Part shown: in pieces, positions 8,556-64,000 of the stretch | Layout: the number at the start of each line of letters is the position of its first letter | How positions within the stretch are numbered: the stretch's first letter is position 1 | Origin: a virus | Virus record (IMG/VR): IMGVR_UViG_3300032325_000466 | Span: 127,028-191,027 of that record | DNA: 64,000 nt | Reading direction: 5' to 3' (one strand) | Notes under the pieces: generated by a model | What the model saw: the letters and a program-made list of their open reading frames with translations, nothing else | The model's database searches: none | What the model was told of the DNA's origin: nothing | Translations under genes and position numbers: made by a program

Positions 8556-11500
8556 ATGCCAAAGAATAACTCTTCAATCAACAATTCGCTATTTGACCTA
8601 CTAAAAGGCAGGGGATATTCTCCCACAATGCTTAGTACCGCGGGTAAAGAAATACCTACCCCTGATGAAGCTGAAGTATTTCAGTTTAATTTTGTAAAAG
8701 ATGGGGAAGATTATGGTAAAGTAACCCTAACAATAGATGATTCCAGTAACCTGATAGTGTATTATAGCGACGATGTTGCTGACAGTGAAAAAGGTAATGG
8801 ATCAACTTATGATTGGGATGATTTTATTGACAAAGTAAAAGACTTTAAGAAATCCAAAAAAACATCCAAATTGAAAGAAGAAGATGATGATGATGAGGAC
8901 TTTAAAAGTGAAGGTGGTGATTTATCTTGGTATGGTTTATTAAATCAATTAAAGCGTTTCGCACAAAGATATCAACTAAGCTTTGAACTTAGAAACACAG
9001 ACAATCTAAAGTCTGATATGGCCAAAAGAGATTATATGAAGAAACAAGACCAAATTTCAGAAAGCAAAAACCATAGTATGGCGGAAGGTTACTCACTAAA
9101 GAAAACTAATGTTGAAAAAACATTTGATCCAGGTGATCCTGATGAATACACACAAGATGTCAATACAACATATACTGATTACGAAATTATCAACAATAAG
9201 ACAGGTCAAGTAGTTGGAACTGCTAGTTGGACTACTAATGATTTTATGGGCCCAGGAGCACTAAAGATTACTATGAAGAATGGTGCTACTAGATGGTTAG
9301 ATATTTGGGAACGAGAAAAGGGTAATCCACAAACAGCATTCAATCGTTTTGTTAAAGATCCCAAAACTGCTAAGAAGTATAAAGAACAAGATAATAAAGG
9401 TGTAACAGAAATGGACAATCGTACCCCAAGTGGTGATCGCAGAGAACAGCGTGCCAATAGCCCAGAAGAAAAAGCAAAGCGTGAAAAAGAACAACAAGCA
9501 AATCTAAAAAAAGTAAGTCCAAAAATGCGCGAAAAATTACGCTTACCTGAACCTAAAGAAGATATGGCAGAAGGCACTGAAAGTATTCTTGCTCGTGGCA
9601 CAGAGGTAACTGTTCCACACAGAGGCAAAATGGTGCCAGGCAAAATTCTTAGATATGTTGCTGGTAAAGGTGGCTATTCAGATGCTTATGTAGTTGATAT
9701 TGGTGAGTATGAGTCCCTGACTGTACCAACATTTAATGTTAAAACTCAAGTTATGGCGGAAGCCAGCGGTGATCAAGTTAAAAAAGTGTTTAAGAAAAAT
9801 GGTAAGCCAGTAGGTGAAGTTGGTATTGATCCAGAAGCAAGTCCGGGCGTTGGTCAATGGTATATGAAGTGCTATCAATACAAAATAGATAATAGTGGCT
9901 ATGACTCATACGAAGAAGCTGTAGAAGAATTAAAGTATTGTATGAAGCAAGGTATGGTGGAAGCACGAAATCCAGAAGACTTCATCAAGGATATTAAAAA
10001 TATTCCCTTACGCCAACGCCAACGAATTGGCAAGTCATTAATCAAACATGCTGAGGAAGCAGGATTAAGGCCTGAAACAATAAAAGTGGGTTATAGTGAA
10101 ACAACTGGGGTTTATCAGGTCACCGGTCTAGCCATGAAACACGGTGCGAAATACGACTGGAGATACAAGTCTGACCCGGCTACTAATAAAATGGTCTCTC
10201 TTGATGCCATGCAATCTGATACTGAGTATGCCCCTGATAAATTTATGCCAATCGTATTTGATAAGTTAGATGAGCAAGATATGGTGAAAGGCACTGAGGA
10301 CTCAACTCAAGTATTAAGCGATATTGTTGCTAATGACGATTTTGATGCATTGTATGACTTAATGTCGTCTAATACTGAAGCAGGTAAAATTGTTCAACGA
10401 ATGTATAACGATGTTGCTGGTGAAGAAGGCTTACATCCAGATGATGATTTTGAACAGATTCTAAACCGTGTGTTTGATCACCTGTCACAAGATTATGGTC
10501 AGCAAGGTATGGAGGAAGGCTTAGGCAAAGATATCAAGCGTTTGGCTACAGGCAAAGATGTTAAAAGTCGTGCTGGACAAGAAATAGCCAAGTCACAAGA
10601 TGCCAGTATGAAGGGCGATACTAAAACTTCTAAAAAGCATTTTGACCGCTATGATAAACTAGATAAGTTAGCAAACAAAGGTATGGCGGAAGGCTGGAAT
10701 AAGGGACGCCGCGCCGCAGATGTGGATCGGGATGACAATAAAGACCCAGACGATTCATTAGATCAACTCATTGATCTGCAAGGACAAAGGGATTGGTTTG
10801 CTAAAATGAGTAAGCCTAAGAATATGAGAAACGGCCGCCAGAAGCCAGCTAAGGATGCTATAAAAAGGTTACCAGTGGCGGAAGGAGCTATAAAGAAATT
10901 ATCAAAGGGCGCAAAGGTGTATCACACACTTCATGGTACTGGTACTGTTATTGACTTCTCAACTGGTCCTGCTGCATCTCATTGGGTAGATGTGAAATTT
11001 ATCAAAGACGGAAACAAAGGCAAGCCTACTAGGGTTGATCGTAAGCAACTTAAGTTAGCAAAAGTTGAAAGTATGGCCGAAGGCTATTATGGTGATGATC
11101 GTGGTGATTATAGAAAAACTGCTAGGGAAGCAAATGCTGCATCTAGGTTGGCAAAATCATCAAAAACTCATGCTGAGGCCGCCCGCCTACATAATTTAGC
11201 AGCAACATATGCGCTATCAGCAGGCCAAGATCAGTCAGTAATACGCGACCATCAGATGGCAGCACATGAACATAATCAGGCTGCAAAAAAATATAAGAAA
11301 GGTATGGCGGAAGGCTACACTGTAACTCGTGGAATTGATACAGAAAGATATCAAGAACGCCCGGGATTGGAAGGTCCCTTTGCTACCAAAAGCGGTAAAG
11401 TTGTATACTATGACAAGCGTGAAGGAAAATACTACGATCCCGATACTGATATGTATATTGAATATGATGATTGGCAAGCTATGAATGAGCAAGATATGGC

Positions 11501-12635
11501 AGAAAGTAATCAACAAGTCAATGAAAGTTACTACCCAATGGGCAAACAAGGTAGCTATAGTGATGCTGTACCAACAACTAAAATCATTATTCAGCATAGC
11601 CGCAGAATAGAAGAAGGTGAGCAGCGTTATCGTAATATCGCTAAAATCTTTGTAGAAAACAGTGAAGGTGAGCGTTTTGCGGTACCAACTAATAAGCCAG
11701 GACTAGCCCGCGTATATGCCCGTCATATAGCAGAGGGTGGCACACCTTATGATGAGCGTGGCCGTCATATTACTTCATTAGTAGAAGAATATTCTAAAAT
11801 GTCTGGCTTTATGCGTGCCACAAGAGGCAAGCAGTTTAATGAGTCAGCACAGCAATTAGTAACCGAAGCTGTAAATTATTATCAAAGTTTGCGTGAAAGT
11901 TTAAGCAAGATGACAGGTCATCGTGGCTATTCAGCATACTTTGAAAGTTGGACACCTTCACTAATGGAAGATGGAGAAGAACAAGAAACCAATCTTAACG
12001 AACTATTCGTACAAGAAACCCTCGACCCCAGAATTGAAAGTGTAATGCCAATCTTAGGTAAGCTACAAAGAAAATTGGGCACCATAAAAGAAGTTGATGC
12101 ACTAGCAGAATGGGCTGATAATATTATTGAAGGTGATGGCGGACAAGAGGCTCTTACCCCACAAGGTATTCCTGAAGCTGCTGGTCCAGAAACTTTAGCT
12201 CATAATATAAGAACCGATCGTAGTAATCTAAAAGCATTTGACTTAGAAGAAACTACTGGTGTAACTGACTATAACCCAAAATCTCAGGGTGGTACTAGAG
12301 CAGAACTTCTTCGCAAATATGCTAACACTAAAAAGCCAAAAGATGCCGAAGCTGCAAGGCGTGCAGGTGCTAGCCAGTCAGAATTAAAAGCTGCGGCCGA
12401 TTCTACTGAAGAAATACATGAAGGTGAGCATGGTCTAGATGAAAACCTAGATGCTAACCAAATTAGTGCAGGACAATTGGGCCCTACAGAAAAAGCCAAG
12501 TCTATTAGTCCAGTATTAGGTGCTCAACCCAAACAGCATCCTTTTAAAGGCAAGTTAGTTGGTGCTGAAGAAAGCGTCAATGAAAGTGAAAATGAATTGG
12601 CTAGAATTTTACAAATGGTCAAGCATAAACGATAA
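8556..12635 (+). CDS. Large modular late protein with repeated MAEG junctions (putative processed head polyprotein)
   Basis: 1359-aa ORF behind TAAATA; 12 (G/S/D/V/P)(M/V)xEx-like junction motifs in the central third. Confidence 0.8.
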   Translation: MPKNNSSINNSLFDLLKGRGYSPTMLSTAGKEIPTPDEAEVFQFNFVKDGEDYGKVTLTIDDSSNLIVYYSDDVADSEKGNGSTYDWDDFIDKVKDFKKSKKTSKLKEEDDDDEDFKSEGGDLSWYGLLNQLKRFAQRYQLSFELRNTDNLKSDMAKRDYMKKQDQISESKNHSMAEGYSLKKTNVEKTFDPGDPDEYTQDVNTTYTDYEIINNKTGQVVGTASWTTNDFMGPGALKITMKNGATRWLDIWEREKGNPQTAFNRFVKDPKTAKKYKEQDNKGVTEMDNRTPSGDRREQRANSPEEKAKREKEQQANLKKVSPKMREKLRLPEPKEDMAEGTESILARGTEVTVPHRGKMVPGKILRYVAGKGGYSDAYVVDIGEYESLTVPTFNVKTQVMAEASGDQVKKVFKKNGKPVGEVGIDPEASPGVGQWYMKCYQYKIDNSGYDSYEEAVEELKYCMKQGMVEARNPEDFIKDIKNIPLRQRQRIGKSLIKHAEEAGLRPETIKVGYSETTGVYQVTGLAMKHGAKYDWRYKSDPATNKMVSLDAMQSDTEYAPDKFMPIVFDKLDEQDMVKGTEDSTQVLSDIVANDDFDALYDLMSSNTEAGKIVQRMYNDVAGEEGLHPDDDFEQILNRVFDHLSQDYGQQGMEEGLGKDIKRLATGKDVKSRAGQEIAKSQDASMKGDTKTSKKHFDRYDKLDKLANKGMAEGWNKGRRAADVDRDDNKDPDDSLDQLIDLQGQRDWFAKMSKPKNMRNGRQKPAKDAIKRLPVAEGAIKKLSKGAKVYHTLHGTGTVIDFSTGPAASHWVDVKFIKDGNKGKPTRVDRKQLKLAKVESMAEGYYGDDRGDYRKTAREANAASRLAKSSKTHAEAARLHNLAATYALSAGQDQSVIRDHQMAAHEHNQAAKKYKKGMAEGYTVTRGIDTERYQERPGLEGPFATKSGKVVYYDKREGKYYDPDTDMYIEYDDWQAMNEQDMAESNQQVNESYYPMGKQGSYSDAVPTTKIIIQHSRRIEEGEQRYRNIAKIFVENSEGERFAVPTNKPGLARVYARHIAEGGTPYDERGRHITSLVEEYSKMSGFMRATRGKQFNESAQQLVTEAVNYYQSLRESLSKMTGHRGYSAYFESWTPSLMEDGEEQETNLNELFVQETLDPRIESVMPILGKLQRKLGTIKEVDALAEWADNIIEGDGGQEALTPQGIPEAAGPETLAHNIRTDRSNLKAFDLEETTGVTDYNPKSQGGTRAELLRKYANTKKPKDAEAARRAGASQSELKAAADSTEEIHEGEHGLDENLDANQISAGQLGPTEKAKSISPVLGAQPKQHPFKGKLVGAEESVNESENELARILQMVKHKR
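9075..11507 (+). repeat. Dispersed in-frame repeat, consensus AAGGTATGGCGGAAGGC
   Basis: Copies at codons starting 9075, 9399, 9561, 9750, 9951, 10278, 10506, 10680, 10872, 11070, 11301, 11493; 19-nt identity at 10677-10695 and 11298-11316. Confidence 0.85.
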
Positions 12636-12652
12636 GGGTAAATTACTTATCA

Positions 12653-12679
12653 AAAACCTCACTCAAAAGGTGAGGTTTT
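12653..12679 (+). terminator. Intrinsic terminator
   Basis: AAAACCTCAC-TCAAAAG-GTGAGGTTTT just after the 1359-aa gene. Confidence 0.75.
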
Positions 12680-12700
12680 CCATATATGGCATAAATGGAC

Positions 12701-12767
12701 TAAATAAAGGTGTAGTTCACGGGACGGCAATCCCCAACTACTCTAACGCTTACAAGGAGCATCAGCA
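12701..12767 (+). promoter_or_regulatory. Late promoter plus structured leader of endonuclease gene (copy A)
   Basis: TAAATA then GTAGTT-CAC-GGGA-CGGCAA-TCCC-C-AACTAC hairpin; GCTT/GAGC stem over the RBS. Confidence 0.65.
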
Positions 12768-13340
12768 ATGTTATTTAGTAAAAAGCATCTACCCGCGGGA
12801 TTTTATGTGTATTTTTGGATACGAGTAAAAGATTCCCCCATTGCTAAGGCAGGCACTCCTTACTATGTAGGAAAAGGTAAAAATATTAGGGCTTGGCGAA
12901 AGGATAAGCATGGAAAAGATAAATTGGTCATTATTGCAGAATCAAACCTTACTGAATTGGGGGCTCTTTCATTAGAAAGGCGTTATATCGAATGGTATGG
13001 TAGAAAAGATTTAGGTACTGGGATACTTAATAATAAGACTGATGGGGGAGAAGGTGCTACTAATTTTAAAAAATCGTATATAAGAAAAAAGAGGTCCATT
13101 GCCACAACTACATTAATGAGTCTTACCAAACTTGGCAAAAAATACCCTAAAATAAGTGAGGCGCTTAAAGGTAAATCTAGGGGAATCAGGACTACTGAAT
13201 GGAAAAATAATATTGGACTCGCTAAAAAAGGTAAAAAGATATCTCCCCAGGAAGTAGTACAATGCCCACATTGTAGTAAGGTAGGAGGCAAATCTTTACT
13301 AACTCGGTATCATTTTCAAAATTGCAAATTTATTAAATAG
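12768..13340 (+). CDS. Free-standing GIY-YIG-family homing endonuclease
   Basis: FYVY...PYYVGKG...R, E...[18 protein letters not shown]; NUMOD-like basic repeats; C-terminal CPHC...RYHFQNCK. Confidence 0.8.
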
Positions 13341-25278: not shown

Positions 25279-25989
25279 ATGATTATTTATTATTTGATGG
25301 TTAAAACTCATACCGTGACTGGACTTAAATATCTTTGCCAAACAAAAAAATCGGACCCGCACAATTATCTTGGATCGGGTAAATATTGGAGACTACATTT
25401 AAAAACACATGGGAACGACATCCACACTGAAATCTTAAAAGAGTGCTCCTCTAAGTTAGAATTAAGAGAATGGGGCATACATTATAGCAATTTATGGAAT
25501 GTTACAAAGAGTAATGAATGGGCTAATTTGAAAGATGAAACCGGTGACGGTGGCCAACCAAAGGGATTTGGTTTAGGAAGAAAGCTATCCGACTCCCACG
25601 TAGACTCATTGAAAAAAGCAAAAACAACAATGAATGAAGAAACTATTCAAAAAATGGTTCAATCTGGAAAAAAATCATACGAAAAAACATTTGCGTTGCT
25701 TACTACTGAACAGCGGAAAGAGAAATATAAAAATAGTTTAGGAAAATTAACATTAGAACAGCGACAAGAAATTGGACGAAAAAATGAGAACAAAGGTGGA
25801 GCTATTTGGAGCAGGGCGTCATCAGGACAAGTTACAGTGACCTATAAAAACGGTATTAGTAAAAGAATTCCACAACAGTTATTTAACGACATGAAGAATG
25901 ATATGATTTTAAAAAATATACCAATGAATGAATGGGATTTCGTTCAAGTGAGTTCATTAGAATCTAAAAAGAGAAAAAATGGCTGCTAA
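25279..25989 (+). CDS. Seg-like GIY-YIG homing endonuclease
   Basis: IYYLMVKTHTVTGLKYLCQT, YLGSGKYW, WANLKDETGDGG; start probably ATG 25279. Confidence 0.8.
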   Translation: MIIYYLMVKTHTVTGLKYLCQTKKSDPHNYLGSGKYWRLHLKTHGNDIHTEILKECSSKLELREWGIHYSNLWNVTKSNEWANLKDETGDGGQPKGFGLGRKLSDSHVDSLKKAKTTMNEETIQKMVQSGKKSYEKTFALLTTEQRKEKYKNSLGKLTLEQRQEIGRKNENKGGAIWSRASSGQVTVTYKNGISKRIPQQLFNDMKNDMILKNIPMNEWDFVQVSSLESKKRKNGC

Positions 25990-44483: not shown

Positions 44484-44514
44484 TTTTACCCACATAAGAT
44501 AAATAGTTCTATAC

Positions 44515-44567
44515 ATTCTCATAGGGAGAATTTATGCAGTACCCACTGCGTAGCGGCTAGAACCCGC
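44515..44567 (+). promoter_or_regulatory. Three-hairpin 5' leader downstream of a late promoter
   Basis: ATTCTC/GAGAAT, TATGCAGT/ACTGCGTA, GCGG/CCGC stems. Confidence 0.5.
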
Positions 44568-44589
44568 CAATCTAATTAAGGAAAAACAA

Positions 44590-46002
44590 ATGGGACGTCC
44601 TCTAAAAATCGCAAAGGCTCAAGCAGTCTTAACAATCACTGATACAGCACAAACAGGCAGTATCGTTACCGTAACACAAAATCTAACTACTTCACCAACT
44701 GTTGGTGTAACATTAGGTATGCCATTCCAAGTAGATACCACAGTAGGTGGGCTAACAGCAGGTGTTACATATTATATTAACTCAATCTTATCAAACAATA
44801 CTTTTGATGTATCAGCTACTCAACTAAGCGTTCAACCACAAGTTATGGCTACTCTGACTGATACTACTGGTCAATCAGTTAGTGCTTCAGTTAATGTAGT
44901 GGATTATGGTTTCAATAATCCAGACAATTCTAATACTTCTGCACCAACTGGTTCTAATGAATCATTTGGTGTTGTAGGTGGCAATACCGCAATCGTTGGC
45001 CCACAAACAACTATCACCGTTGCTATTGGTCGTAGCGGTGCAGGCGTAATTTACGGTGACACTGGTAATTTGAATATTTATGGTGCCGGCACAGATTTTG
45101 CTAACACTCTATCAGTTGGATCTGCTCTTCAAGTTGCTATTCCAAACGGACCTGGTTTCACCACTGATACTAATATTGGGTTCGTTGATACAAATACAGG
45201 TTATATCACTGTTGCAGTGGCTAATACAAATGCTACAGGTAATGTTATCCGCACTTCAGGTAATGCCCAAACTCTATTCGTTGGCGCACCAGTAGTATTC
45301 GATGCTAGCACAGGCGGTTTAGTTGCAAACACAGTATATTTCGTTGATACAATCGCTAACGCTAGCGCATTTACCGTAGCTACAACTCAGTATGGTCCAC
45401 AGAAAGCAGTTATTACTGGCACCACAGTATCAAATGCTACTATAGATGTAACAGTATTAGCTGCTACTCCACCAGCAAACTTTACAGGCGCAACATATGT
45501 TTATGCAAATGACGAAGCAGGCTTTATTGTTCGTCAAAAAGGTAAAACAAAGTATCTAGCTACTGGTTTATCAACTGGCTTAACAGCACCTTGCTATACA
45601 GCTAATATAACAACTTCAGCATTAACACCAAATACACTAAGTATTGTTGCTACATATGCGGATGCTAGCACTGCGTTTGTCTCAAGTCTAAACGATTATC
45701 AAACTCAAGTATTCCCAACACAAGTCGCTGATGGTTCATTGACTCCTGGTTCACTATACACAATTTACTATTCAGGTGACACAAACTGGACAGCAATTGG
45801 TGCAGCGTCTAATATGACAGGCGTTACATTTACTGCGTTATCAGCAGGTGGTTCTGGAACAGGTACTGCAATATTAGCTCAGTCATCTGGTGAGACAACT
45901 TCTCAGGAAAATCCTGATGTAATTTCATCATTTAATACTGCATATGCTGCTAATACATTCCCTGGACAGCCTAACCCAGTAGTAACAATTAGCAACGCAT
46001 AA
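44590..46002 (+). CDS. Virion structural protein (MGRPLK N-terminus)
   Basis: Strong RBS, late promoter, beta-sandwich-like repeats, IVRQKG motif. Confidence 0.7.
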   Translation: MGRPLKIAKAQAVLTITDTAQTGSIVTVTQNLTTSPTVGVTLGMPFQVDTTVGGLTAGVTYYINSILSNNTFDVSATQLSVQPQVMATLTDTTGQSVSASVNVVDYGFNNPDNSNTSAPTGSNESFGVVGGNTAIVGPQTTITVAIGRSGAGVIYGDTGNLNIYGAGTDFANTLSVGSALQVAIPNGPGFTTDTNIGFVDTNTGYITVAVANTNATGNVIRTSGNAQTLFVGAPVVFDASTGGLVANTVYFVDTIANASAFTVATTQYGPQKAVITGTTVSNATIDVTVLAATPPANFTGATYVYANDEAGFIVRQKGKTKYLATGLSTGLTAPCYTANITTSALTPNTLSIVATYADASTAFVSSLNDYQTQVFPTQVADGSLTPGSLYTIYYSGDTNWTAIGAASNMTGVTFTALSAGGSGTGTAILAQSSGETTSQENPDVISSFNTAYAANTFPGQPNPVVTISNA

Positions 46003-46319: not shown

Positions 46320-46345
46320 AAAAGCGACTTAGGTCTCTTTTTTCA
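46317..46345. terminator. Bidirectional terminator between convergent genes
   Basis: AAAAAAGCGAC-TTAG-GTCTCTTTTTT. Confidence 0.6.
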
Positions 46346-47024
46346 TTGACAATTTCCATCCCTTATGTGACTTGCGCTCACCAGATAATAATCCACAGAC
46401 TGCACTGGGGGAAAGATGATATTTATCAATTAGCTCTTTTCTTGTGCACCGCTCATAAATCCCGCTTGAATTCTCAAACTCGTATATACAATGGTCATAT
46501 CTAGGAGCTAGTTTACCAACTTGTTTACTGCGCCTGTCTTTCGCTTCTGTTGATGCAAGTGTTAACTTCATAGACTCTCGTTTACGTTCTTGTACTCCAG
46601 GAATACGTGCGGCCTCTAATGAGCGTTGACGATGAAACTTTTTGAATTGAGGATTGGCATGCATTTCTTTTGACTTAATACTACGCTTTTTTCTTTCTTC
46701 TGGATTATTAGAAAAAATTTTCATTAACTCAGAACTCCCTCCGCCGGATTCGATTATTCTATTAGCCCATATTTTATTACCAAAATCATCCATTGCGGTG
46801 GTAATTTTCCATAGACTACTGTAGTAACGCCCCATGAAAGTTAGTTCTTCCCAATCATTGGTTTCAAGTATTATTTCTGTATTAACTAGGTTTTTTCCGT
46901 AAATCTGATAATGGATCTTCCAGTCGATACCTGATCCTGGATAAGTATACGGGTCATGGGTAGTGTAACCTAAGTATTTTAGCCCTGTGGTTTGATGTGT
47001 TTTTATGTATAAGTAATATGGCAT
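46329..47024 (-). CDS. Seg-like GIY-YIG homing endonuclease with C-terminal HTH-like module
   Basis: YYLYIKTHQTTGLKYLGYT, YPGSG, WANRIIESGGG; end RKSHKGWKL; minus-strand TAAATA upstream. Confidence 0.82.
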   Translation of the reverse strand: MPYYLYIKTHQTTGLKYLGYTTHDPYTYPGSGIDWKIHYQIYGKNLVNTEIILETNDWEELTFMGRYYSSLWKITTAMDDFGNKIWANRIIESGGGSSELMKIFSNNPEERKKRSIKSKEMHANPQFKKFHRQRSLEAARIPGVQERKRESMKLTLASTEAKDRRSKQVGKLAPRYDHCIYEFENSSGIYERCTRKELIDKYHLSPSAVCGLLSGERKSHKGWKLSMKKET

Positions 47025-61199: not shown

Positions 61200-61685
61200 A
61201 TGACTAAACGATTGCAAGAACTTTTCAACCTCCCGGACAGTGTAGAATCTGATCTTACTATACCTATACCTGAAAATGCAGAACTAATTACTACAGAAGC
61301 ACTTAGTAATTTAGAAAAAATTGAAAACGCACTACCCCAAGTTAGAGGGTTAGAATCTAGTGATACTGAACTTGATGAATTATCTGAGCTAGCTATCGAT
61401 AGCTTTAAAAATCTTCAAGACTTGGGTATGCAAGTAGAAGCCAGATTTTCTGCTGAATTGTTTAACGCTGCTGGTACTATGCTTGGTCACGCTATCACTG
61501 CTAAAACAGCAAAAATAAACAAAAAGTTAAGAATGATTGAGCTACAGTTGAAAAAAGCTGTGTTAGATCAAAAAGAAGCTCAAAAAGGTAAAGAAATTGA
61601 AAATACCCCACTAGGTGAAGGCAGATCATTAGATAGAAATGAATTACTCAAAATGGCTCAAAATCTAAAGAACAATGATAAATAA
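61200..61685 (+). CDS. Helical late protein, candidate terminase small subunit
   Basis: All-helical, ends DRNELLK as in gp16-like proteins; next to gp4; weak. Confidence 0.35.
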   Translation: MTKRLQELFNLPDSVESDLTIPIPENAELITTEALSNLEKIENALPQVRGLESSDTELDELSELAIDSFKNLQDLGMQVEARFSAELFNAAGTMLGHAITAKTAKINKKLRMIELQLKKAVLDQKEAQKGKEIENTPLGEGRSLDRNELLKMAQNLKNNDK

Positions 61686-61751
61686 ATTGTAGTTCGCGGA
61701 ATTGGCGTTCCCAACTACTCTAATGCTTATATTTCGAAAGGAAGCACCAGC
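61679..61751 (+). promoter_or_regulatory. Late promoter plus structured leader of endonuclease gene (copy B)
   Basis: TAAATA then GTAGTT-CGC-GGAA-TTGGCG-TTCC-C-AACTAC; TGCTT/AAGCA stem over RBS. Confidence 0.65.
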
Positions 61752-62363
61752 ATGACTATTTATCTATACAAGAAAACGCATAACATTACTGGATTGAAGT
61801 ATCTTGGTAAAACTATATCACCAGATCCCCACAAGTACAAAGGATCAGGTGAAATATGGATACCTCATATAAAAAAACATGGGTATGATGTTACAACAGA
61901 AATTCTTAAAGAGTGTCAAACAACTGAAGAACTAAAACATTGGGGATTGTACTATAGTGAGCTATGGGACGTAGTTAATTCTCGTGATTGTAATGGTAGA
62001 AAAATTTGGGCTAATTTAAGGCCTGAATCAGGGGACGGCGGCGCAGTAGTAACCCCTTGGAACAAAGGTATAAAGACGGGTCCTCAATCACCGGAAATAA
62101 AAGAAAAAAGGTCTAAAAGCATGAAGGGTAAACCTGCTCATAATAAAGGTGTACCTAACCCGTCAATATCATTATCTAATAAAAAACGCCTTACTGGAGT
62201 ACCTAGATCAGAAAAGGATAAAGAAGCGATATCCAAAGGTGGAAAAGGTAAAAAAATGGCTACTATTACCTGCCCTCACTGTATGATGACCGGTGGTCGA
62301 GGTAATATGAATCGGTACCATTTTGAAAATTGCAAATATATTACCAAAAAGATAAATACTTAA
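61752..62363 (+). CDS. Seg-like GIY-YIG homing endonuclease
   Basis: IYLYKKTHNITGLKYLGKT, YKGSG, WANLRPESGDGG, PWNKG/PAHNKG NUMOD3-like repeats, CPHC...RYHFENCK. Confidence 0.85.
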   Translation: MTIYLYKKTHNITGLKYLGKTISPDPHKYKGSGEIWIPHIKKHGYDVTTEILKECQTTEELKHWGLYYSELWDVVNSRDCNGRKIWANLRPESGDGGAVVTPWNKGIKTGPQSPEIKEKRSKSMKGKPAHNKGVPNPSISLSNKKRLTGVPRSEKDKEAISKGGKGKKMATITCPHCMMTGGRGNMNRYHFENCKYITKKINT

Positions 62364-63023: not shown

Positions 63024-64000
63024 ATGGATTTCAAAAAACTATTATCACAGCTAGACCAGTTACATGAAGCCGATGTTAAACACAAAGGCACCTATGGCAC
63101 TTCATACCAAGGTGATGACGATGAAGATGACGACAAAAAAACAGCGCCTGCTCCAACTGAAAAGCGTGGCCGTGGTCGTCCAAAGAAAGCTGGTGGCGCC
63201 GCTGATACTTCAGCCAAATATAGTGGTGCAAAAGATTTGCAATCGATGATAGTTGGTAATGTTCCTAAAGATAGTAAAGAATTAAAAAATCTTCCAAAGA
63301 CTAAAAACAAATTATCCGATGAAGAACCTAAGAAAAAGAAAAGCACTACTGAAAGTCTAAAAGATTGGATAGCTACTATTGATGAGCAGCGTATGTTAGC
63401 AGAAGCTGGCTTAGCTGTACAACCAATTGGTAAGCCAGGTCAAAACTTTCTAATTAAAGATCCTGCAAATCCATCAGCCTCAGCAATCACTACTAGCGAT
63501 CCAGCAGTAGTTGATGCTGCTAAAAAAGGTACATTATCAATGCAGAAGCCAGGTGCAGCACCAGCAACAGGTGCAGGCTCACAAGTTCGTGCTATGCGAG
63601 AAGGTGAGGGTTCAGGTAGTAAAGAAGAATTAGCAAGACGAATTTATGACTTAGGATTCTCGATTCACCGCAACCTTGGTCCAGGTGATCCAAAAGAGTA
63701 CGAGTTACTTGACCAATTAAAAGCTCAATTCGCTCAACAATTCCCAGGTGAAGATCCCTTTAAAATTGGAGGAGAAGCTTCGCGCAAGGCTAGCAGCGCA
63801 GCTGCCGACCTTGCAGCTAGCAAACTTCCAAAACGAATGTTTGGTGGAAATACAAAACCAATGTTTGGTCAACGAAATGAATCTATGCGAGAAGGTGAGG
63901 GTTCAGGTAGTAAAGAAGAATTAGCAAGACGAATTTATGACTTAGGATTCTCGATTCACCGCAACCTTGGTCCAGGTGATCCAAAAGAGTACGAGTTACT
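63024..64000 (+). CDS. Partial late protein with AT-hook and duplicated module (runs off the window)
   Basis: My translation: MDFKKLLSQLDQLHEA...KRGRGRPKK...MREGEGS; no stop before 64000; GAGGA RBS. Confidence 0.85.
   Translation, partial: MDFKKLLSQLDQLHEADVKHKGTYGTSYQGDDDEDDDKKTAPAPTEKRGRGRPKKAGGAADTSAKYSGAKDLQSMIVGNVPKDSKELKNLPKTKNKLSDEEPKKKKSTTESLKDWIATIDEQRMLAEAGLAVQPIGKPGQNFLIKDPANPSASAITTSDPAVVDAAKKGTLSMQKPGAAPATGAGSQVRAMREGEGSGSKEELARRIYDLGFSIHRNLGPGDPKEYELLDQLKAQFAQQFPGEDPFKIGGEASRKASSAAADLAASKLPKRMFGGNTKPMFGQRNESMREGEGSGSKEELARRIYDLGFSIHRNLGPGDPKEYEL
63592..64000 (+). repeat. Exact in-frame direct repeat, period 291 bp
   Basis: 63592 onward equals 63883-64000 (118 bp visible). Confidence 0.92.

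Follow-up and report, generated by a model that had tools for sequence, protein, structure and literature searches.

Hairpins that sequester the ribosome binding site (RBS) and carry an embedded late promoter, known from gene e, I-TevI, mobE and segB, are an established means of controlling homing endonuclease genes (HEGs) in T-even phages (PMC3014915). Here we examine a short leader that occurs twice in a 64-kb stretch of viral DNA (positions 127,028 to 191,027 of the 191-kb IMG/VR record IMGVR_UViG_3300032325_000466, hereafter the window), each time directly upstream of an HEG. The window encodes T4-like phage genes and, judged by the gp32-type single-stranded DNA-binding protein (SSB) and the gp4-like head closure protein encoded there, its origin is a T4-like phage. 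As in the T-even hairpins, a late promoter stands beside the structured translation start of an HEG, and the aim would be to limit or delay the nuclease; in T-even phages, however, the promoter lies inside the hairpin and late transcripts escape, whereas here the fold fits the opposite strand and both covarying hairpins lie 3' of the promoter core TAAATA, a departure from the T4 bypass design that an earlier note on this DNA had rightly recognised. We propose with moderate confidence that the leader belongs to a portable, two-faced expression unit of ~80 bp (the cassette) at the 5' end of free-standing HEGs of uncultured T4-like phages.

Several other described elements resemble the cassette in part. 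From ocean-survey metagenomes, Dassa et al. (2009) reported, upstream of HEGs of the GIY-YIG and Vsr-like types, hairpins that carry a TATAAATA element together with two conserved, complementary motifs (PMC2677866). Like the cassette, these are conserved hairpins accompanied by a late promoter 5' of free-standing metagenomic phage HEGs of different families, but that paper interprets them as sense-strand translational elements and gives no antisense promoter, strand asymmetry or large-scale covariation; judged by description, the two elements may be the same or related. In the T4-like cyanophage S-PM2, the antisense RNA CfrI overlaps an HEG (Millard et al. 2010, as cited in PMC2984593). Unlike the cassette, CfrI as summarised there is ~225 nt long and links the HEG to psbA, with no conserved 5' two-hairpin unit. 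The promoter/stem-loop (PeSL) cassettes of T4-type phages combine early sigma-70-type promoters with a terminator and are present in many copies per genome, within hyperplastic regions (PMC2839356, PMC4122927). They too are short portable modules of promoter and stem-loop bordering variable genes, but the cassette has late-type promoters, only 2 copies in 191 kb and a specificity for HEGs, and falls outside the definition of a PeSL.

In IS10/Tn10, convergent overlapping promoters lie at the 5' end of the selfish element's enzyme gene, and a stem-loop antisense RNA (RNA-OUT) pairs with the ribosome site of RNA-IN. What we predict for the cassette is similar in its convergent promoters and in a stable stem-loop antisense RNA on the ribosome site; it differs in having two hairpins and a terminator, a phage late-transcription context and unrelated host genes. 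In Escherichia coli, the promoter of SymR lies inside the open reading frame (ORF) of symE (PMC1891008). Here, likewise, a small RNA is predicted opposite the ribosome site and start of its target, with a promoter in the target's first codons and a proposed repression of a harmful nucleic-acid-cutting protein, whereas phage late promoters on both strands, targets in several HEG families and portability set the cassette apart from SymR/SymE, in which the cis-antisense RNA covers the 5' end of a toxin gene resembling a nuclease.

A covarying leader specific to HEGs

A base-by-base check of both copies confirmed the shared architecture that the earlier note had described upstream of ORF 12768 and ORF 61752. 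The elements follow one another in the order TAAATA, outer stem, internal loop, inner stem, linker TCTAA, hairpin 2 at the Shine-Dalgarno sequence (SD), and CAGC(A)ATG (Table 1); between the two copies the stems are alike and the loops differ. A degenerate pattern of 41 nt matched the window only at 12712-12752 and 61689-61729 (shuffle expectation 0.00), and the complete 191-kb record contains these 2 copies only. Exact-pattern scans of IMG/VR found the ~80-nt cassette in at least 171 viral contigs, at least 120 with the canonical pattern and 51 further ones through scans that forced a change in the outer stem, and a profile search of the fetched DNA gave 197 copies with 162 distinct cores. 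The carriers are a clade of uncultured T4-like lake phages, between which stems and linkers are nearly identical and loops differ. Rfam 15 has no match to either leader on either strand, at the gathering score and up to E=10, and the motif is indeed unlisted there, as the note had supposed. A blastn search of GenBank phages with the leader gave no real match, and the ORF region as query returned only weak matches to freshwater Synechococcus phages. The element would be an RNA motif, common among uncultured phages and covarying strongly, that is new to curated RNA libraries, and in metagenomic phage contigs it flags late promoters and the start codons that HEGs truly use. One locus (L109:1136-1179, + strand) has a partial cassette, with promoter and hairpin 1 followed by unrelated sequence, which may be the scar of a lost endonuclease gene.

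All helices covary, and the leader is a real structured nucleic-acid element. Among the 107 distinct leaders on which covariation was counted, the inner pair 26:36 of hairpin 1 is A-U in 58, G-C in 28, U-A in 12 and C-G in 3, with no unpaired case, and at pairs 53:73, 54:72 and 55:71 of hairpin 2 both sides switch. The outer stem had been held fixed in the first scan, and its variants come from the scans that forced a change there: A17 to G is accompanied by T43 to C in 26/27 loci and T16 to C by A44 to G in 19/23, one-sided changes being rare (0, 1 and 0 loci in three dedicated scans). Diverged copies show further compensatory swaps (GUGAGU/ACUCAC, GAGA/UCUC), a replacement of C-G by U-A at pair 47:79 (two copies), and A-U, U-A or G-C at pair 50:76. 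The compensatory difference between the window copies (GGGA/TCCC versus GGAA/TTCC), which the earlier note had seen, is in this way corroborated by more than 100 additional copies. A mutual-information scan for tertiary or pseudoknot contacts between the hairpins recovered helix pairs only. An alternative role as a double-stranded DNA operator for a dimeric protein was rejected, as the half-sites GTAGTT and AACTAC are not at a constant distance, which differs by several bp between copies, and as pairing but not sequence is preserved in the inner stem.

The association of the leader with genes was assessed on the distinct ORFs of 120 aa or more in the DNA collected, 1527 in total, 'HEG-like' being defined by similarity to leader-bearing ORFs. 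It is exclusive to HEGs: the leader stands upstream of 121/184 HEG-like ORFs and of 0/1343 others (Fisher 8e-133), and a few HEG-like ORFs count as 'leaderless' only through the choice of start codon or because their leader has diverged. ORFs headed by the leader form ten N-terminal clusters, which include GIY-YIG (classical and SegE-like), HNH, HNH_3, DUF559/Vsr-like and DUF7487 types. Nine of the ten clusters are named homing endonuclease or intron-like DNA endonuclease in PHROGs, which reaches the cluster of copy 1 through its C-terminal part only. The leader accordingly heads HEGs of at least four unrelated nuclease types, with several unrelated DNA-binding tails.

The two leader-bearing ORFs of the window (12768-13340 and 61752-62363) are alike only over their C-terminal ~100 aa (35% identity, E=2e-12), a region that includes the motif C-x2-C...H-x3-C. 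The earlier note was correct in describing this common Cys/His region, and also in stating that the two other Seg-like genes of the window (25279 on the + strand, 46329-47024 on the - strand) have neither leader nor finger. From this distribution (2/2 versus 0/2) it inferred that the RNA and the zinc domain travel as a pair, as an autoregulatory operator or a ribonucleoprotein, a model that now appears hardly credible. In the loci collected, the C2HC finger is present in 43/121 HEG-like ORFs that have the leader and in 16/63 that do not (odds ratio 1.6, p=0.19), and 78/121 leader-bearing HEGs are without it; the leader occurs independently of the C-terminal domain, an outcome that the note itself had named as a refutation, and since these wider counts show no link, the association within the window is a small-sample coincidence. 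The finger (C-x2-C-x13-14-H-x3-C in the C-terminal ~36 aa, loci L001-L121) is a shuffled module joined to six different nuclease N-termini, and its nearest matches are classical C2H2/C2HC zinc fingers, which bind DNA. An autoregulatory operator is likewise at variance with the presence of one and the same leader on HEGs of so many nuclease types and tails.

Strand asymmetry and a frame-independent box

The helices of the leader are not equivalent on the two strands. In the 156 distinct aligned leaders used for wobble counts, the non-Watson-Crick cells of hairpin 1 and of lower hairpin 2 are A.C or C.A on the gene strand and hence G.U on the other, apart from one C.U cell at 17:43 and, at 51:75, a few cells that are A.A or gapped. 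Nine positions have A.C and none of these has sense G.U (16:44, 17:43, 18:42, 22:39, 25:37, 26:36, 49:77, 50:76 and 51:75). The A.C cells number 287 excluding 27:35, and 131 when the invariant 49:77 is excluded as well. The loop-closing pair 27:35 (12 A.C, 6 G.U) is the sole site of sense G.U in these parts of the leader, and outside it hairpin 1 has 37 A.C cells and 0 G.U. Pair 49:77 is A.C in 156/156 leaders and stays so in diverged copies in which the neighbouring pairs have switched, pair 50:76 is A.C in 17 leaders, and the combinations found at 51:75, (C,A) 77, (T,A) 57, (C,G) 15 and (T,G) 0, are exactly those permitted on the antisense strand. This wobble asymmetry argues that the selected fold lies opposite the gene strand.

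Alignment-fold energies likewise favour the antisense strand, with an RNAalifold consensus of -16.1 to -17.4 kcal/mol as opposed to -10.2 for the sense strand, and of the 107 leaders folded singly, 93/107 reach a lower energy as antisense than as sense. In copy 1 the antisense strand reaches -20.3 kcal/mol (z=-2.5, 3/200 shuffles folding equally well) and the sense strand -15.3 kcal/mol (z=-1.36), and in copy 2 the antisense strand reaches -17.1 kcal/mol (z=-1.83). On the mRNA strand, upper hairpin 2 has 3-4 bp (mean ~-2.5 kcal/mol) with the SD partly in the loop, and the lower stem is broken by A.C. The earlier note had placed the RNA on the gene strand and had let its second hairpin bury the SD, neither of which is supported by these data; what stands of its proposal is a real covarying motif absent from Rfam, while the link with the zinc finger falls and the strand was probably wrong. 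At the sequence level, directly past antisense hairpin 1, at least 5 U within 8 nt are found in 102/107 leaders, against 0/107 in the sense direction. This U-tract criterion was applied separately from a simple terminator scan, by which antisense hairpin 1 was not called, probably owing to its bulged stem.

Both ends of the cassette carry conserved promoter-like sequences. The sense TAAATA lies 5 nt ahead of hairpin 1 in 93/105 leaders, followed by G15, and NATAAATA is a known late promoter of T4-like cyanophages (PMC2984593). At the other end, CAG (alignment columns 77-79) is invariant and TATTTA (columns 87-92) nearly so; the search patterns held no bases past TCTAA, and both are thus outside the selection of the leaders. 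TATTTA lies 6 nt past CAG in 89/105 leaders, and its offset from the ATG is 5 (69 leaders), 3 (22) or 4 (13), which covers all three reading frames and makes the box encode x-Ile-Tyr, Tyr-Leu or x-Phe-x. For example, one HNH family has both Met-Tyr-Leu-x-Asn-Lys-Tyr-Thr and Met-Ile-Phe-Ile-x-Asn-Lys-Tyr-Thr. In two variants (L035, L062) the ATG lies inside the stem and the box is still 6 nt from the stem; an exception is L106, with a distance of 11 nt. Because this distance is fixed while the start codon shifts, the box is a nucleotide-level signal bound to the structure and not to the protein. On the bottom strand, TATTTA reads as TAAATA followed after 5 nt by G (the complement of the C of CAGC), which mirrors the geometry of the sense promoter, and the box is predicted to be a T4-type late promoter core on that strand.

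The nearest upstream ORF is divergent in 55-60% of contexts, and between the start of such a gene and the cassette there is often a bottom-strand TAAATA belonging to that gene; a co-oriented nearest upstream ORF has its stop codon a median of 13 nt ahead of hairpin 1. In loci with a divergent upstream neighbour (L003, L016, L031, L063, L066 and others), the neighbour's bottom-strand TAAATA, found within 60 nt upstream of hairpin 1, is often 10-45 nt from the sense TAAATA of the cassette, so that back-to-back late promoters result.

A sense/antisense reading and its alternatives

The reading that we prefer, and to which we give about an even chance on the strength of these sequence comparisons, is that convergent late promoters yield the HEG mRNA and a ~65-nt cis-antisense RNA over the ribosome site. 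On the gene strand, the late promoter (A/C)TAAATA would make the HEG mRNA begin with the opening base of hairpin 1, and the ribosome site would lie in and beside the weak upper hairpin 2. On the bottom strand, the late-promoter core in codons 2-4 would start a ~65-nt RNA opposite the C of CAGC. This RNA, predicted to span the SD and start region, would begin with a stem-loop of 8-9 bp that has the anti-Shine-Dalgarno CUCCUU in its loop and next to it; antisense hairpin 1 would follow, and the RNA would end in ACUUUUAUUUAU, this hairpin and the U-rich tail together resembling an intrinsic terminator. As it is complementary to the mRNA leader over its full length, the RNA would pair with the ribosome site, probably beginning by loop-loop contacts, and the synthesis of the nuclease would be lowered by ribosome blocking, duplex cleavage or promoter interference. 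Through the G.U/A.C asymmetry, the hairpin at the ribosome site would stay weak in the mRNA but strong in the antisense RNA, and as the loops of the window copies differ while their stems are alike, each antisense RNA would be specific for its own mRNA at first contact. The firing of the bottom-strand promoter, termination past hairpin 1 and repression of the nuclease are the steps that we infer here.

If this is so, a single portable regulatory cassette restrains HEGs of unrelated families in place of gene-specific devices. Signals would overlap throughout, with a promoter in codons 2-4 in any frame, a terminator tail complementary to the other promoter, and an asymmetry that lets a helix form on one strand only. 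We found no published account of the antisense reading, of the frame-independent promoter box or of covariation on this scale. We consider it unlikely that the antisense RNA is a general brake for HEGs of at least four nuclease superfamilies that could also act in trans in mixed infections. Trans action is conceivable because stems and linkers are near-identical between phages while loops are different, and its consequence would be either the silencing of a rival phage's nucleases or a gene-specificity kept by the loops. On that view, RNA would form a further layer in the contest of selfish elements with phage genomes, and the cassette would exemplify a promoter placed in a gene's opening codons whatever their frame.

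Several observations weigh against the sense/antisense reading. In upper hairpin 2 the asymmetry is reversed, with U.G in 67 leaders at 56:70, the G being part of the SD, and the mRNA fold may therefore matter too. The leaders are related, and cell counts do not equal independent events. The U-rich tail past antisense hairpin 1 is automatic, because it is the complement of the sense promoter sequence. As to the promoters, bare TAAATA is too frequent to define one (94 copies in the 64-kb window), ~10% of leaders are without the TATTTA box, the leaderless gene at 25279 also has TATTTA, and in GIY-YIG genes Ile-Tyr codons account for it in part. Finally, one lake metatranscriptome, used as contigs (90-99% alike) that contain 6% of the words of a 6-kb stretch, covers parts of neighbouring genes and not the leader or HEG, and is uninformative on expression.

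Part of this evidence would suit a purely sense-strand leader, in which a protective 5'-terminal hairpin and a weak SD hairpin throttle translation, A.C mismatches are conserved to keep the ribosome-site hairpin weak, and no antisense RNA exists. Watson-Crick covariation is strand-neutral, the distance from promoter to hairpin implies an mRNA whose first base is also that of hairpin 1, and upper hairpin 2, besides the sense-type U.G at 56:70 and 8 more at 55:71, has its more stable form on the sense strand in 99/138 leaders. There is also precedent, as RBS hairpins are established on the mRNAs of I-TevI, mobE and segB (PMC3014915) and similar metagenomic hairpins are interpreted in this manner by Dassa et al. 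2009 (PMC2677866). We nevertheless regard such a leader as somewhat unlikely, since it leaves unexplained why the lower stem (47-51:75-79) undergoes compensatory changes if it never forms, why the 37 A.C cells of hairpin 1 outside the loop-closing pair are unaccompanied by G.U, and why TATTTA stays at a set distance from CAG whichever of the three frames is used. Another alternative is a temporal gate of the T4 gene e/I-TevI type: in read-through transcripts, (A)UAAAUA would pair with UAUUUA(U) past the start codon and close a three-way junction that blocks the ribosome, whereas late transcripts would start inside the junction and be translated. TAAATA and TATTTA are exact complements whose pairing reaches 8 bp in both window copies, in the T4 paradigm it is the late promoter that supplies the inhibitory hairpin with its 5' arm (PMC3014915), and a same-strand upstream ORF exists in 20-47 contexts, depending on the ORF size cut-off, with its stop close to hairpin 1 where it is the nearest (the median given above). 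The flanks of the proposed helix, however, are without covariation, its predicted pairing probability has a median of 0.014, and ribosome-site accessibility hardly alters (0.49 vs 0.53). Moreover, the box is equally kept with divergent (49/55) and co-oriented (37/42) upstream neighbours, although no read-through is expected with the former. The gate is very unlikely in our view, and long-range TAAATA-TATTTA pairing was set aside for its lack of flank covariation and low thermodynamic support.

A further possibility is that the cassette acts at the DNA level, as a recombination module comparable to PeSLs that is kept for the shuffling of HEG modules and has no RNA function. Recombination is needed to explain how the leader and the first 3-4 codons came to stand before nucleases of at least four unrelated families, with several C-terminal modules, and PeSLs have been described as exchange points (PMC4122927). 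Homology, however, needs no base-pairing, yet compensatory changes keep all helices; only 2 copies are present in the 191-kb genome; and PeSLs are early promoters with a terminator for the upstream gene, in contrast to the late-type promoters found here. We take an exclusively recombinational role to be very improbable indeed.

Coordinates and other features of the window

The two cassette-bearing genes of the window match phrog_314 and phrog_655, both 'homing endonuclease', which fits free-standing HEGs with a modular DNA-binding tail among phage core genes; the genes of the SSB and head closure protein are among their neighbours. The N-terminus of the copy 1 gene belongs to a cluster with the motif YVY...YYVGKG, typical of GIY-YIG, and its domain has no significant family match. 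The copy 2 gene has a SegE-like GIY-YIG N-terminus, a weak match under the Pfam cut-off whose relatives score clearly.

Table 1. Positions of the two cassettes, their predicted products and the HEGs of the window
Feature	Position	Strand	Remarks
Copy 1, whole cassette	12698-12778	+	architecture checked base by base
Copy 1, late promoter core of T4 type on the sense strand, CTAAATA	12700..12706	+	TAAATA at 12701-12706; 5 nt to G12712, the predicted mRNA start
Copy 1, hairpin 1	12712..12741	either strand	outer stem GTAGTT/AACTAC, internal loop CAC/C, inner stem GGGA/TCCC; 30 nt
Copy 1, hairpin 1, bottom strand	12712..12741	-	predicted terminator hairpin of the antisense RNA
Copy 1, hairpin 2	12743..12765	either strand	lower stem CTAAC/ATCAG (A.C and C.A on + strand = G.U on - strand), upper stem GCT(T)/(G)AGC
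Copy 1, SD AAGGAG in loop of hairpin 2	12754-12759	+	anti-SD on - strand
Copy 1, predicted cis-antisense RNA, ~62-67 nt	12700..12766	-	two hairpins, U-rich tail ACCUUUAUUUAG
Copy 1, predicted antisense start	complement of C12766	-	5 nt beyond the bottom-strand promoter core
Copy 1, TATTTAG box, codons 2-4	12772..12778	-	bottom strand CTAAATA = predicted antisense late promoter
Copy 1, homing endonuclease gene, 190 aa	12768..13340	+	C-terminal C2HC zinc finger
Copy 2, whole cassette	61676-61763	+	architecture checked base by base
Copy 2, late promoter core on the sense strand, ATAAATA	61678..61684	+	TAAATA at 61679-61684; 4 nt to G61689; overlaps stop codon (61683-61685) of upstream ORF
Copy 2, hairpin 1	61689..61718	either strand	GTAGTT CGC GGAA ... 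TTCC C AACTAC; 30 nt
Copy 2, hairpin 2	61720..61750	either strand	lower stem CTAAT/ACCAG (two A.C on + = two G.U on -), upper stem GCTT/AAGC, long loop with SD AAGGAAG; - strand stem 9 bp
Copy 2, predicted cis-antisense RNA, ~70-75 nt	61677..61751	-	
Copy 2, predicted antisense start	complement of C61751	-	
Copy 2, TATTTAT box, codons 2-4	61757..61763	-	bottom strand ATAAATA = predicted antisense late promoter
Copy 2, homing endonuclease gene, 203 aa	61752..62363	+	C-terminal C2HC zinc finger
Further HEG	25279-25989	+	N-terminal family of ORF 61752 (M-x-I-Y-Y-L...KTH...GLKYL); abuts upstream ORF
Further HEG	46329-47024	-	N-terminal family of ORF 61752; 19 nt of intergenic space only

Some features near the two cassettes and elsewhere in the window are recorded here for completeness. 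Upstream of copy 1, ORF 8556-12635 (+ strand, 1359 aa) has acidic and basic low-complexity stretches and a short motif, (G/S/D)MAEG(Y/W/T), that recurs at least 8 times and might mark repeat units or processing sites. Between the end of this ORF and the copy 1 promoter lies a terminator-like hairpin (12657-12682, + strand; CCTCAC-TCAAAAG-GTGAGG, then TTTT), which the simple terminator scan did not call. Downstream of copy 2, ORF 63024-63998 (+ strand, continuing past the window) contains an exact internal repeat of ~38 residues, MREGEGSGSKEELARRIYDLGFSIHRNLGPGDPKEYEL, in two occurrences. The sole Rfam 15 match across the window at the gathering score is a freshwater-2 RNA (RF02980) at 44515-44592 (+ strand), with 67.4 bits against a gathering score of 49.9; it starts ~10 nt past a TAAATA at 44500 and therefore probably lies at the 5' end of a late transcript.

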